A DNA stretch of 32,971 bases from a virus (taxonomy: Duplodnaviria > Heunggongvirae > Uroviricota > Caudoviricetes): IMG/VR virus record IMGVR_UViG_2563366843_000007; one strand, given 5' to 3'. The notes beneath the pieces are model-generated. The model ran no database searches. It was not told the origin of the DNA and saw nothing but the letters and a program-made list of their open reading frames with translations. Both the position numbers and the translations under genes were made by a program. Positions 3,982 through 11,707 of the stretch are shown here, piece after piece (position 1 is the stretch's first letter; every line of letters begins with the position of its first letter).

Positions 3982-4185
3982 TTACGGCGCTGTTTTAAGT
4001 CCTGCCGGGATTTCGTTATTATCCATGTGAATAACTTTATCGACCGGATAGCAGTTACCGGGAATTTTTTGTTCTGCTGCGGCAGCCATGCATTCTTTCA
4101 TTGAACCGTAAATGTCAATAACCATGTCAACAGGTTCGCCAGTATTAAGAAAAACAGTCAGAGTGAGGGCAATAGCAGTATTCAT
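3982..4185 (-). CDS. Small protein, YdfD-like (DUF1482-like)
   Basis: 67-aa ORF starting MNTAIAL with hydrophobic N-terminus; its ATG overlaps the dicB stop (ATGA), as for ydfD in the Qin dicB operon. Confidence 0.5.
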   Translation of the reverse strand: MNTAIALTLTVFLNTGEPVDMVIDIYGSMKECMAAAAEQKIPGNCYPVDKVIHMDNNEIPAGLKTAP

Positions 4186-4370
4186 TGCCAGTATCCTTTT
4201 TGCATCGGGCGTAAACGTGCCAGCATTGAAAGAATGCATATTTTATTTAATAGCTCCCGTTCGTGTTTTCTTTTGTTAATGGCCTCTTCAGTAAATACAG
4301 GATTACTGATAGTGACACCAATTTCAAAACAACCTTCAGACGTATTAACGTTTGGTAATAACGTTTTCAT
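4182..4370 (-). CDS. dicB: Cell division inhibitor DicB
   Basis: 62-aa ORF MKTLLPNVNTSEGCFEIGVTISNPVFTEE... matching my recollection of E. coli DicB in length and N-terminal sequence; GAGGG Shine-Dalgarno 8 nt upstream; lies 169 bp downstream of DicF. Confidence 0.7.
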   Translation of the reverse strand: MKTLLPNVNTSEGCFEIGVTISNPVFTEEAINKRKHERELLNKICILSMLARLRPMQKGYWQ

Positions 4371-4539
4371 TATCGCGCCCTCAACAATGAGTTTTGTGAT
4401 GCGGTGCCTGGTGCCTCCAGGTGACGTTAACCAGTTAACAATTAACGCCGGATACAGAGAATCCACCCATAACACTGTTTTTGGTTTTAACTGTTCCGCG
4501 TGCGCTCAGCCGCATTCACCGCATCACAAAATTCACTTT

Positions 4540-4597
4540 AAAAAGGGCGGCAGAGCAGTCACGGAGTAAAACTGATACCGCCAAACGTCACCAGAAA
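4540..4597 (-). ncRNA. dicF: DicF small regulatory RNA (ftsZ-targeting sRNA) with intrinsic terminator
   Basis: Minus-strand sequence UUUCUGGUGACGUUUGGCGGUAUCAGUUUUACUCCGUGACUGCUCUGCCGCCCUUUUU matches the DicF sRNA as I recall it, including the GGCGG/CCGCC terminator stem and U-tail; sits directly upstream of dicB. Confidence 0.8.
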
Positions 4598-4931
4598 ATT
4601 GATAACAGAGGGCGTTGCAGCGGGGTTGTCACTTAAGCGTATGGTCAACCTGACAACCCGGTGTCCTCAACGGGGGAAGGAATAACCCCGCCATACTTAC
4701 CGCCGCGCCATTTCGCGGATTGCCACAACCGGAAGCGCACGGTCGACGAAAATTTAACGACAGGCTATCTATGAACCAGCTACCTCGCCGTGCGCTTTCG
4801 CGTTATGGTCTGACTTTTCAGGGAAATATCCTTTCAGTAAACTGTCAGTGCCGGATGTTCACCCGTGTCCGGCGCACGCACTCCACCTCACCCGTGGAGA
4901 ACTCCTTAATTACCAACCCTCAGGAGGGTGA

Positions 4932-5165
4932 ATGTTAAAATCAACTCTTATTGCTAAATGCCTTTATCAAAATCGCATGGTAAGCAGCATTTCAATAGGC
5001 GAGTCTGCAGTTAAAAGTATTTTCGAAGAGTACTTCCCCGGGCATGATTTTAATAAATGGAATACCAAATTACCGCCAGCAGTTTCAACGCGTATTCTGA
5101 AAGCAACTGAAAGAGCAAGTACAATTCGCGTTAACTATTTCATTAAAGATTTGTGGGATCTTTGA
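4932..5165 (+). CDS. Hypothetical protein (77 aa), AT-rich, no recognisable motif
   Basis: ATG preceded by AGGAGGG at 5-nt spacing; ~38% GC; convergent with and overlapping the 3' end of the 135-aa minus-strand gene by 23 bp. Could instead be antisense to that gene's 3' UTR. Confidence 0.4.
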   Translation: MLKSTLIAKCLYQNRMVSSISIGESAVKSIFEEYFPGHDFNKWNTKLPPAVSTRILKATERASTIRVNYFIKDLWDL

Positions 5166-5550
5166 CATCCACAGAGCCTAAAGTATGTGCATATGGATGT
5201 GCTATTGTGCGCCCTCGCAGATTTGCATCATTTTCTAAATTCACTGAACGAAACAGGGCATCAACAAGGCTCTGTACAATGCAAAGGCAATCGAAGACTG
5301 TCGCTGTTTCTGTTTTGATTGATGAAAGAACATGGCCATTCACGCAAACAGAAATTACCCGTTCATTAACATCGCTTTCCTGCTTTTGATTATCAGAACC
5401 ATATAGCCCAGAAAAAGCATTGCGCACATTACGAACCATATTATCGATGGTTTCTTTTTTGGTGTATGCCGGGTCAATTTTCACCAGACTATCACCGAGA
5501 GTCGTTGCAGCAATTGTCTGGATTTCTTTTGGTAAATCTTTAAATTCCAT
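5143..5550 (-). CDS. Hypothetical protein (135 aa), AT-rich moron gene
   Basis: ATG with GAGG 6 nt upstream, immediately downstream of the ydfC-like gene; ~40% GC against a markedly more GC-rich left flank; no recognisable family motif. Confidence 0.55.
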   Translation of the reverse strand: MEFKDLPKEIQTIAATTLGDSLVKIDPAYTKKETIDNMVRNVRNAFSGLYGSDNQKQESDVNERVISVCVNGHVLSSIKTETATVFDCLCIVQSLVDALFRSVNLENDANLRGRTIAHPYAHTLGSVDVKDPTNL

Positions 5551-5572
5551 TATTAGCCTCGTTGGTTAGCTA

Positions 5573-5791
5573 TTAACGTGGGTATGTAATCATTCTGGCA
5601 ATGCTTAATGCCGCTGCTTTTTCCAGCCTGGTGATATCCTGCTCCAGAGCGGACAGATTTTCAGCCTGCTTAGCCCTGGCTTCATTGGCCCATTTCAGAT
5701 CCTGCGCTGCATTAATTTTCTGGCGCATCCACTCATAAAGTTCATCATCGGTATAGTCTGGCGCGATGATTACGGGTTCTCGTTTCTGCAT
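5573..5791 (-). CDS. YdfC-like protein
   Basis: 72-aa ORF in the position and of the size of Qin ydfC, upstream of dicF in the minus-strand operon. Confidence 0.55.
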   Translation of the reverse strand: MQKREPVIIAPDYTDDELYEWMRQKINAAQDLKWANEARAKQAENLSALEQDITRLEKAAALSIARMITYPR

Positions 5792-5811
5792 ACTGATTCC
5801 TCGCGGTGCTG

Positions 5812-5949
5812 TTTCGCTTATCAGCCGTTAGATTTTGCCGAACTGGAAAGCGCCTGTTTAAATTCGCTGAAGCTGAGAGTTTCTTCGCCTTCGGCAAGGC
5901 CTTCGAAGTATTCTTCGTAAGCCTTTTTCATGATTGTGTCGAAATCCAT
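5812..5949 (-). CDS. YdfB-like small protein (45 aa)
   Basis: Short ORF MDFDTIMKKAYEEYFEGLAEGEE... (below the 60-aa ORF track cutoff), starting 1 nt after the ydfA-like stop; tightly packed operon context. Confidence 0.4.
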
Positions 5950-5950
5950 A

Positions 5951-6106
5951 TCACTCACCTGAGTTTCTTTCCAGCCAGCGACGCGCGCCAGATTCGGTTT
6001 TAAACGTTTTGCTTTTGGTATACGTCATCGCGGTGAACGTACCGTCCTGGTTGGGGAACACGCCACATACCAGAGATTCGCTGTTGCCAAGATCGATAGT
6101 ATCCAT
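5951..6106 (-). CDS. YdfA-like small protein (51 aa)
   Basis: Internal ATG (MDTIDLG...) with GAGGT Shine-Dalgarno 5 nt upstream gives a 51-aa product, the size of Qin YdfA; the longest ORF extends to 6187. Confidence 0.5.
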   Translation of the reverse strand: MDTIDLGNSESLVCGVFPNQDGTFTAMTYTKSKTFKTESGARRWLERNSGE

Positions 6107-6287
6107 GCTGACCTCATTTCCCCTTAACGCCGGGGTAGCGGAACAAAAACCTGCTGCATAGTTATTAAAGTTGAACCCTGCCGTCATGTTCTTACGCCTC
6201 GGGCTGGCTACTTAACCCCTGACCACTGCCTGGTAACTCGAAGTATTGCCCTGCATTCTGTGGGGCGGGGTGGGTTGGTATGTTGTT

Positions 6288-6378: not shown

Positions 6379-7053
6379 TCAGTCTAAGTATTGATGTATT
6401 TGTGAAACTTTACCTTTAATGGTGTAACCACCATTCAGTTCGATGGGTTTGTAAAGCGGATTCAGTGACAACAGATAGATGTTTGGTCCGTCAATCGCAA
6501 CTTTTTTTAGTGTTACGTTTGGCGTTCCTTCCAATTGGATTAAGATTATTTTTCCCACCAGTTCTCTAATGTTACTTGAGCATGGTGTGATCAGCACGGT
6601 AGATCCGTCGGGGATGGTTGGGAGGCCGTTAGAGTTTGTCATCGCATCTCCCTCAACATGCAATAAAAAAGAGTTTTCAGCGGTTTTTGTCATGACATCA
6701 ACCCAATTCTTAATACCAGGAATCTCGGTTACTGGACAACTCATATCCCAATAACCAGCCTGTTCCCACGTTAAAACGGGCAACCGGGCGATGTTGTCAC
6801 TAATGTAAAGGTACTGATTCAGACGCAGATCATCGGTTTTATCGTGACCGTCCTTTCCATAAAGAATCCATTCAGGAGATTTGGAAAGCAATTTTGACAG
6901 TAGATGTAAATTCTCACCGTCAGGTTTTGAAGAGCCATTTTCCCATTTTGTTACGGATACACGAGATATGCCGATTGCTTTCGCAACCTGCTGTTGGGTT
7001 AATCCTACGTCTTTTCGACGATTCCGAATACGTTCGCTGATAGTGTTTTTCAT
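6379..7053 (-). CDS. CI/C2-type prophage repressor (N-terminal HTH, C-terminal S24 LexA-like peptidase)
   Basis: N-terminus MKNTISERIRNRRKDVGLTQQQVAKAIGISRVSVTKWENG... is an XRE-type HTH resembling P22 C2; the C-terminal half is assigned as S24 self-cleaving peptidase fold from overall resemblance to C2/CI (catalytic Ser/Lys not individually identified). Start at 7053 keeps both OR operators intergenic; the longest ORF extends to 7152 (TTG). Confidence 0.85.
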   Translation of the reverse strand: MKNTISERIRNRRKDVGLTQQQVAKAIGISRVSVTKWENGSSKPDGENLHLLSKLLSKSPEWILYGKDGHDKTDDLRLNQYLYISDNIARLPVLTWEQAGYWDMSCPVTEIPGIKNWVDVMTKTAENSFLLHVEGDAMTNSNGLPTIPDGSTVLITPCSSNIRELVGKIILIQLEGTPNVTLKKVAIDGPNIYLLSLNPLYKPIELNGGYTIKGKVSQIHQYLD

Positions 7054-7054
7054 G

Positions 7055-7115
7055 TAACCAATGTTACTACCAAGTGATGTTGCTATGGTTGACATCGATA
7101 TGTAACTATTGTTAC
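7055..7115. promoter_or_regulatory. OR operator/promoter region with two GTAAC-N4-GTTAC operators (7055-7068, 7102-7115)
   Basis: GTAACCAATGTTAC and GTAACTATTGTTAC, 47 bp apart, between the divergent repressor and cro-like genes; a TTGACA hexamer at 7089-7094 lies between them. Confidence 0.55.
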
Positions 7116-7144
7116 CCTCCTGCTCGAAATAACAGGAGAGTTTT

Positions 7145-7360
7145 ATGTTCAAAGATGATGTTCTGCGCTATTTCAAAAAAAAGCGACTAGTAGCTGAGGC
7201 TCTTGGAATTTCACATGTGGCTGTTGTGCGGTGGAAAGCAGTTATTCCCAAACTTCGCGCAATGGAACTGGATGAAATTACTAACGGTGAATTGAAATAC
7301 AACCCAGAACTTTACAAGAAGCAGGATAGCACCTCGAACGAAGGAAAGAATGATTCATGA
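7145..7360 (+). CDS. Cro/YdaS-like HTH transcriptional regulator
   Basis: 71-aa ORF divergent from the repressor; HTH-like segment RLVAEALGISHVAVVRW; GGAGAG Shine-Dalgarno. Confidence 0.7.
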   Translation: MFKDDVLRYFKKKRLVAEALGISHVAVVRWKAVIPKLRAMELDEITNGELKYNPELYKKQDSTSNEGKNDS

Positions 7361-11340: not shown

Positions 11341-11551
11341 AAACGGTTTGCGGGAAAAGGAGAGTTAAGTAGAATTGCAGCGGGTGCTTGAGGCTATCTG
11401 TCTCAGGCATGAACACCAAAAGGCAGATAGAGAAAAGCCCCAGTTAACATTACGCGTCCGGCAAGACGCTTAACATTAATCTGAGGCTCAATCTATGAAC
11501 GGCAAATCTAGGTTAGCCTCTTACGTGCCGAAAGGCAAGGAGAAGCAGGCT
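11341..11551. promoter_or_regulatory. hok mRNA leader region (possible mok-like upstream start and antisense Sok-like RNA)
   Basis: Structured leader upstream of hok; an in-frame upstream ATG at 11495 with GAGG; inverted repeat CTATCTG...CAGATAG at 11395-11439. Confidence 0.35.
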
Positions 11552-11707
11552 ATGAAGCAGCAAAAGGCGATGTTAATCGCCCTGATCGTCATCTGTTTAA
11601 CCGTCATAGTGACGGCACTGGTAACGAGGAAAGACCTCTGCGAGGTACGAATCCGAACCGGCCAGACGGAGGTCGCTGTCTTCACAGCTTACGAACCTGA
11701 GGAGTAA
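11552..11707 (+). CDS. hokD: Hok/Gef-family type I toxin (HokD/RelF-like)
   Basis: 51-aa product MKQQKAMLIALIVICLTVIVTALVTRKDLCEVRIRTGQTEVAVFTAYEPEE, typical Hok transmembrane and periplasmic domains, essentially as I recall RelF/HokD; AAGGAG Shine-Dalgarno. Confidence 0.8.
   Translation: MKQQKAMLIALIVICLTVIVTALVTRKDLCEVRIRTGQTEVAVFTAYEPEE

Follow-up and report, generated by a model that had tools for sequence, protein, structure and literature searches.

A conserved structured RNA domain in the precursor of the small RNA DicF of a Qin-like lambdoid prophage

The IMG/VR virus record IMGVR_UViG_2563366843_000007, a stretch of 32,971 nt to which we refer as the window, carries the early-left operon of a Qin-like lambdoid prophage on its minus strand, and directly upstream of the small RNA (sRNA) DicF this operon contains a spacer segment (4598-4931) that is untranslated and read on the minus strand within the DicF precursor. 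We found that the segment holds a conserved RNA domain of about 120 nt (4607-4728, minus strand), scoring 150.3 bits with a covariance model (R1), which is folded into four helices with a candidate pseudoknot, is coupled to a terminator-bearing sRNA module and constitutes the structured precursor domain of a known sRNA. With moderate confidence we read the segment as the untranslated leader of the DicF precursor in a dicB-type operon and the domain as a cis-acting processing and stability module. A first-pass annotation of the same DNA had drawn attention to two GC-rich hairpins presenting a duplicated loop motif, TCACCCGTG, and had considered an unannotated RNA as one explanation; such an RNA is indeed present at 4607-4728, and folding together with covariation analysis supports this domain, whereas both TCACCCGTG hairpins show no covariation.

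The fold was derived from 90 distinct domain sequences, obtained from two pattern scans of viral contigs and from annotated records. The search patterns demanded parts of two of the 'invariant' blocks, CAGGTTGACCAT and GGCGGT.AG, the covariance model was built from a hand-derived structure, and its nested helices were used in making the alignment. All 90 distinct sequences were found by the model at 84-152 bits, and 95.3% of the paired cells in the model-guided alignment are indeed pairs. Changes on both sides were observed for 19 out of 35 pairs, in 115 cells, a result reached by none of 500 shuffles, and sliding the partners as a control lowered pairing to 33-55%. Across the domain alignment, 166 G.U cells stand against 45 A.C cells, an excess which places the domain RNA on the minus strand, that of the transcript.

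Helix P3 (4651-4658 with 4624-4631) is the best-supported of these helices, and its arms are the inverted repeat GGTTGTCA/TGACAACC that the first-pass annotation mentioned only briefly, overlooking that GGTTGTCA is part of one helix within a larger conserved fold; the repeat as such was confirmed, with 9 bp (GGGTTGTCA/TGACAACCC, 4623-4631/4651-4659) instead of 8 bp and with coordinates shifted by one base. As arms of P3 the window has GGGUUGUCA/UGACAACCC, locus L140 has GGGUAACCA/UGGUUACCC, L141 has GAGCUACCA/UGGUAGCUC, L145 and L206 have GGAUCACCA/UGGUGAUCC, and elements resembling phage P1 have GAGUUGCCA/UGGCAACUC. P0 (4722-4728 with 4615-4621) covaries from UUGUGGC/GCUGCAA to UUGUGGU/ACCACAA and reads GCUGU/ACAGC in the L145 type, and P2 (4686-4689 with 4672-4675) covaries with variable length. 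P0, P2 and P3 are thus established by covariation, while helix P1 (4714-4718 with 4703-4707), helix Pa (4699-4702 with 4659-4662) and the pseudoknot (4691-4696 with 4639-4644) are candidates; in the latter, GUAUGG would pair with CCAUAC of the P3 loop, with one covarying pair (U-A to C-G in 13 P1-like sequences) and two wobbles. Alignment with phage P1, the cdtI phage and pPE4 displayed the invariant blocks. Close relatives differ in the length of a run of C within the 3' arm of P2 (4672-4676), with CCCC in K-12 and CCCCC in the window. An RNAalifold consensus from a first alignment, pairing GGUUG with CAACC, was rejected, as in L140, L141 and L145 CAACC varies jointly with the upstream arm, and a likeness of words in the invariant loop (CCAU.C…AAGUGA.AAC) to 5S rRNA was dropped, with no 5S match in Rfam.

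The domain is widespread. The domain occurs in 4315 out of 5426 complete Escherichia coli genomes (about 80%), with up to eight copies. By megablast the segment was found in 4326 of the 5426 genomes, and of the 30 listed RefSeq records 29 have nothing annotated where it matches. The domain also occurs in many E. coli, Shigella and Salmonella phages, including Salmonella phage F1055, and in the ban leader of phage P1. In Klebsiella Kp4866-6 and Salmonella 118970_sal3 the domain is absent, and BLAST similarity is confined to other parts of the unit. The segment as a whole is a mosaic of three parts (4607-4728, 4724-4807 and 4809-4931) which phages swap independently, and its relatives share different pieces of it: the piece 4606-4729 recurs in the cdtI phage, Stx2c phages, pPE4 and phage P1, the piece 4724-4931 recurs in phiSTEC1589 without the former, and the piece 4837-4931 recurs by itself in phi367.

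Downstream of the domain, an intrinsic terminator was detected 27-74 nt past P0 in 70 out of 75 distinct downstream sequences, and two further ones (L061 and L140) have a longer hairpin with a U-run that the terminator detector missed. At least nine distinct sRNA/terminator modules follow the domain, among them DicF, a cdtI type and a pPE4 type, with a plain terminator in phage P1, and most of these 3' modules share UUUGGCGG…CCGCC. In phage P1, the 'dicF-like region' of the ban leader (NC_005856, misc_feature 68791-68892) fits the domain model with 88.7 bits (L012, 2487-2605). The domain there begins about 26 nt past the start expected for P1ban, an annotated promoter under C1 control, and an intrinsic terminator comes after it. 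The P1 record notes no more than a similarity at this place. DicF itself is unrecognisable in P1, with no Rfam DicF match, so that P1 shares the domain and not DicF. Nothing useful was found in the literature on a ban-leader RNA of P1.

Several observations accompany these modules. In pPE4 (L014, 2373-2479) the sRNA-plus-terminator module stands behind the domain twice in tandem; the record carries an Actinobacillus phage label, and the neighbouring sequences resemble those of E. coli phages. A sub-threshold match to STnc100 lies between DicF and dicB in the window (4393-4533, minus strand; 39.8 bits versus 47), and in the related viral contig L169 (9587-9777) STnc100 exceeds the threshold directly after a DicF-like terminator; STnc100 thus appears to be the next module of the DicF unit. 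In the most divergent members (L145, about 4000-5800; L141; L180) the domain is followed by several hundred GC-rich, ORF-poor bases (ORF, open reading frame) with neither sRNA nor terminator, and part of the L145-type GC-rich sequence is common to Klebsiella and Citrobacter phages.

The segment is the same sequence as the ydfC-dicF spacer of E. coli K-12, with 97.8% identity over 4598-4918, and the gene order ydfC, spacer, DicF, dicB, ydfD is common to both; relative to K-12, the window has a pair of genes for 135 and 77 aa inserted between ydfC and the spacer. This comparison, proposed in the first-pass annotation along with a role as a DicF-precursor processing region, supports that role, because processing by RNase III as well as by RNase E has been published for the K-12 transcript. 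In K-12, RNase III gives rise to a 190-nt DicF species and RNase E to a 53-nt species from the operon transcript, both build up in stationary phase, no internal promoter was found, and in the wild type no transcript longer than ydfABC-dicF was seen (bioRxiv 10.1101/2023.04.14.536235). In Ragunathan et al. 2023 (bioRxiv 10.1101/2023.04.14.536235) and in reviews, the upstream 137 nt of the 190-nt DicF, which has the same sequence (98%) and the same operon position as our segment, figure as precursor or are called a 'long untranslated region'. The K-12 region and its processing are therefore already known, as is the P1 similarity from the P1 record, and for the fold, its covariation, the modular pairing with sRNAs and the wide spread no description was found in the DicF literature, to whose scope Faubladier 1990/1994 and the P1 genome paper did not belong.

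In the window, DicF occupies 4545-4597 (minus strand; Rfam RF00039, 76.7 bits at 4545-4596), with 4597 as the 5' end of the 53-nt form and a terminator U-run reaching about 4540. The RF00039 match adjoins 4598-4931 and does not enter it, so the segment itself is not DicF RNA. Between the domain and DicF lies an AU-rich single-stranded linker (4598-4606, minus strand; …GUUAUCAAU|UUUCUGG), where the annotated 5' end of DicF leads us to expect the RNase E site. The 190-nt form of DicF has reportedly been visible on gels since 1990 (Faubladier et al. 1990). Counting 190 nt back from the DicF terminator leads to 4729-4735; by this arithmetic the published 190-nt RNA should consist of domain, linker and DicF, and the core domain would be, by length, the 5' domain of that species.

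The positions 4729-4735 fall in the 3' arm and base of the strongest stem of the segment, which had escaped the first-pass annotation. Its 13-bp core, AAGCGCACGGCGA/UCGACCGUGCGCUU, joins 4788-4800 with 4730-4742 (92% complementary) and is extended by CAUAAC (4802-4807) with GUUGUG (4724-4729) to a long stem of about 20 bp (4724-4807, minus strand), seen as an inverted repeat and in the minimum-energy fold, the variable loop of which contains the conserved UGUCGUUAAAUUU. This stem is a probable RNase III substrate. Among 17 arm combinations we counted 11 wobble-preserving changes against four single changes of the A.C type and no double changes, a bias of the single changes towards wobble pairing on the strand of the transcript. 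At the same place, cdtI-type and F1055-type loci have a non-homologous long stem (z = -2.7 and -4.1); in Qin-, cdtI- and F1055-type loci alike the long stem abuts P0, with stems unrelated in sequence. The 3' end of the window's long stem overlaps the 5' strand of P0, and in these three types as well as in phage P1 an upstream CA(C/U)AAC or GCAACG is able to pair with UUGUG of that strand, which gives it two possible partners. A defined 5' end near P0 may be, judging from the sequences, a feature shared by P1, Qin-, cdtI- and F1055-type loci.

Taken as a processing and stability module, the domain could act as follows. The distal block 4809-4931 would be transcribed first, as a variable spacer, after which the long stem 4724-4807 would form and RNase III would cut near 4729-4735, freeing UUGUGG to close P0 of the domain. 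The product would be the 190-nt DicF RNA, composed of the folded domain, the 9-nt AU-rich linker and DicF with its terminator, and a cut by RNase E within the linker would release the 53-nt DicF. In this scheme, closing of P0 would place the 5'-monophosphate end left by the RNase III cut beside the RNase E site, and the domain would give the sRNA a defined, protected 5' body and time the release of the active form; the exact cut sites, the P0 switch and the protective or timing role are inferred. Comparable cases are MicL and SroC (PMC9438474), sRNAs likewise cut from longer mRNAs with flanking structure setting their ends, in contrast to which the flanking domain of DicF is more conserved here than the sRNA and is exchanged as a unit with different sRNA modules.

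Several points weigh against this reading. The domain sequences all come from phages of Enterobacterales, and the effective sequence number of the covariance model is 1.38. Pa (CGGU/ACCG) is invariant except for two wobbles, and the pseudoknot has a single covarying pair in one lineage. Unpaired bases, namely CAGGUUGACCAU.CGC and GGCGCGGCGGUAAG, are near-invariant from lambdoid phages to P1, in part because the search patterns built this in; such conservation suggests a specific partner, which a purely structural 5' cap would not need. Moreover, three distinct downstream sequences (four loci: L141, two of the L145 type and L180) have no terminator within 170 nt. Conversely, phiSTEC1589 and a Salmonella prophage have a DicF-like RNA without the domain, which indicates that the domain is not required for making such an RNA; in phiSTEC1589 only UUGUG-AAUA-ACAAC remains where the domain would be, and in the Salmonella prophage a long stem runs directly into DicF.

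The hairpins that had drawn the first-pass annotation lie in the distal block. Hairpin 1 (GCCGGA…TCCGGC, 4850-4855/4868-4873, overall 4850-4873) and hairpin 2 (CTCCAC…GTGGAG, 4881-4886/4894-4899, overall 4881-4899) can form on either strand, and both are present as described, as are the two copies of TCACCCGTG (4859-4867 and 4888-4896). Neither stem, however, shows a compensatory change, and TCACCCGTG is kept in neither loop across lineages. Nor does the duplication stand out as a signal, with three exact copies and 10 within one mismatch in the window against an expectation of 7.5 ± 2.6, and with about five exact direct 9-mer repeats within 40 nt expected per 33 kb by arithmetic (33,000 x 40 / 4^9). 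A tentative possibility is accordingly that these hairpins amount to conserved spacer without a specific role, palindromes rich in GC that are passed on with the functional modules on either side, with which the unremarkable folding of 4725-4935 on the minus strand (no better than shuffles, z = -1.1) also agrees. Homology to the window stops at about 4818, 4878, 4896, 4918 or 4932 among 103 distinct upstream sequences (at 4918 in K-12-type loci), and two of these joints, one at about 4878 separating the hairpins and one at about 4896 interrupting hairpin 2, also speak for spacer. What speaks for a retained structure is that 21 sequence variants have the stem of hairpin 1 unchanged save single mismatches, while its loop (CACGGGUGAACA; …UGCGCA in K-12; CACGGAUAAGAA) differs at four out of 12 positions between lineages sharing the stem. 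As for hairpin 2, it persists in about 38 distinct upstream sequences, disappears at a recombination joint in five and gives way in about 15 to an unrelated hairpin (GACCAACACG…CGUGUGGUC), suggesting that a stem is kept at that place. This alternative hairpin occurs in two forms with reverse-complement loops, ACACG-CTGTCA-CGTGT and ACACG-TGACAG-CGTGT (L029/L131 versus L060/L130 types), and looks as if the palindrome had been flipped.

A second possibility, compatible with DicF processing and held by us just as cautiously, is that the distal block (about 4809-4931) is a plus-strand promoter with the 5' untranslated region of a variable small-gene slot, antisense to the early-left operon, and that the hairpins lie in this leader. 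The block ends at 4900-4931 with a ribosome-binding site (AGGAGG, 4922-4927, plus strand) of the 77-aa ORF, and in many viral contigs, as in phi367, phiSTEC1589 and the window, conservation stops exactly at the Shine-Dalgarno sequence plus ATG of unrelated plus-strand ORFs. Such ORFs were found in 30 out of 74 loci with hairpin 1, falling into at least eight unrelated families of 57-99 aa that begin 57-68 nt beyond the hairpin; two of them match PHROG families over their full length, and those of the window, phi367 and phiSTEC1589 have no similarity to one another. A promoter-like sequence, TTTTCA (4815-4820) and TAAACT (4838-4843) spaced by 17 nt on the plus strand, would start the RNA near 4850, where hairpin 1 begins, and the two hexamers are each conserved from lineage to lineage. 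On this strand hairpin 1 gains two extra G.U pairs, and 4598-4931 folds with z = -3.1. The promoter match is weak, with 8/12 consensus positions in our own scan and no site reported at 4815-4843 by a stricter one, and the remaining 44 loci, of the K-12 type, keep the block without an ORF. As mosaic joints are common at gene ends, the coincidence with the start codon may also mark only a recombination boundary. Accordingly, the hairpins may be part of the leader of an opposite-strand gene slot with variable content, of the DicF-precursor spacer, or of both. A minus-strand leader peptide in this region (GUG AGG UGG … UGA, 10 aa, after AAGGAG, or the frame EFSTGEVE.VRRTRV) was rejected because phiSTEC1589 lacks its start, the other lineage has an unsuitable spacing and the changes are non-synonymous.

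Turning back to the domain, we retain two regulatory readings besides the processing module, because the near-invariant unpaired bases argue for a partner which processing alone does not name. Put generally, the domain would be a new class of phage cis-regulatory RNA, either a processive antiterminator with no relation to put or a switch in conformation, that decides between the DicF-type stop and read-through, which we regard as unlikely. Somewhat more doubtful still is a reading in which the domain is a cis-acting processive antiterminator resembling HK022 put, which would fold while the transcript is nascent and modify RNA polymerase to read through DicF-type and later terminators into dicB/kil and the recombination genes. 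The domain does lie upstream of an intrinsic terminator in operons whose distal genes need to be expressed (dicB, ydfD and the exonuclease; in P1 the tRNAs, tciABC and ban), and the near-invariant unpaired bases would fit binding of a conserved host machine. In cdtI an early-left promoter-like site (11/12) is followed by about 600 nt without an N-like gene, and none of the domain-bearing loci yielded an N homologue. The one match among about 227 loci is phiSTEC1589, a related locus precisely without the domain; with three queries for the diverse N proteins, and with many loci ending short of the immunity region, this comparison is too weak to be decisive. The likeness to HK022 put extends to an RNA of phage early operons, positioned upstream of terminators in phages lacking N and acting independently of a phage protein, as is possible for the domain. 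The fold of put is different, however, with two stem-loops of about 70 nt and a triplex versus four helices and a pseudoknot, and put is present in both early operons, whereas the domain occurs once, a second copy in the early-right operon not having been found. Neither BLAST nor the covariance model with filters off detected similarity to putL or putR or any match in HK022, which gives no ground for placing the domain in the put family. The tight spacing of 27-74 nt to a single terminator also differs from put, which acts at a distance, and wild-type K-12 lacks the longer transcript that read-through would produce. The short words that HK022 putL (L017, 28240-28310, minus strand) has in common with the domain are GCGCGGCGG and, for the P1 form of the domain, ACCAUGCG; they stand in a different order and without an alignment. 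A lambda-type nut site was rejected, as no N homologue was found in the window or in domain-bearing loci. The small stem region CUGAC…GUCAG (4809-4848, minus strand) has a boxB-like form in most relatives, CCCUGA-AAAG-UCAGGG, which has a loop other than the GNRA-like pentaloop of boxB and comes before instead of after the boxA-like UGUCGUUAAAUUU; the window has it in degenerate form.

Very improbable, finally, is a riboswitch or thermosensor choosing between DicF termination and read-through into dicB: a pseudoknotted conserved domain is indeed followed by a variable segment ending in an intrinsic terminator, the GCGGCGGUA block can pair with the terminator 3' arm, a pairing present when the 190-nt RNA is folded at minimum energy, and UUGUGG has two alternative partners, but no Rfam riboswitch matches, pairing with a terminator 3' arm is kinetically poor at preventing termination, the alternative pairing shows no covariation, the downstream genes suggest no ligand and the domain also occurs without a terminator.

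The GC content of the segment reaches 0.55-0.57 compared with about 0.40 in the flanks, and the whole 396 nt on the minus strand fold with z = -2.4. As stated in the first-pass annotation, the segment lacks a convincing ORF. The longest candidate, with a TTG start and 72 aa (4720-4938, plus strand), has no Pfam match, and its frame is not conserved, phiSTEC1589 using another frame than the window and phi367 across the same block. In the open minus-strand frame the changes are, by our reading of one alignment, mostly non-synonymous, unlike a protein-coding gene. A search of 4300-5300 with the 4227 models of Rfam 15, a check the first-pass annotation had also proposed, gave no family inside 4598-4931 at E <= 10; over the whole searched region the only matches were DicF, the sub-threshold STnc100 and two at chance level.

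Upstream of the spacer segment, the minus-strand operon comprises the repressor (6379-7152), a DUF1391/ydfA-like gene (5951-6187), a 45-aa ORF (5821-5958), ydfC (5573-5791) and, between ydfC and the segment, the 135-aa gene (5143-5550, minus strand; PHROG 1363). The 77-aa ORF (4932-5165, plus strand; PHROG 10348), with its ATG at 4932, is convergent with the 135-aa gene and overlaps it by 23 nt. DicF is followed on the minus strand by dicB (about 4182-4370), then ydfD and a RecE-like exonuclease. Elsewhere in the prophage, a sok antitoxin RNA (11382-11557, plus strand; 112 bits) points to a toxin-antitoxin locus of the hok/sok type.

In several phage records, ORFs annotated as hypothetical overlie the domain, including orf40 of cdtI (L013, 2124-2579) and F1055_0036 (L227, 2333-2905), and wherever the strand was checked it was opposite to that of the domain. 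These ORFs annotated across a structured RNA are probably spurious, and the annotation can be corrected in this respect. The plus-strand small-gene slot, for its part, may hold accessory genes expressed from the prophage. DicF is among the oldest known bacterial sRNAs, and its upstream part has so far figured in published accounts only as precursor; in our alignment the domain is more conserved across phages than DicF itself, and this upstream part may matter more than DicF. Should the domain prove to be an antiterminator or a switch, it would govern the choice between an sRNA and the expression of a cell-division inhibitor and recombination genes in lambdoid prophages lacking N, in the ban operon of phage P1 and in most E. 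coli genomes, including that of K-12.

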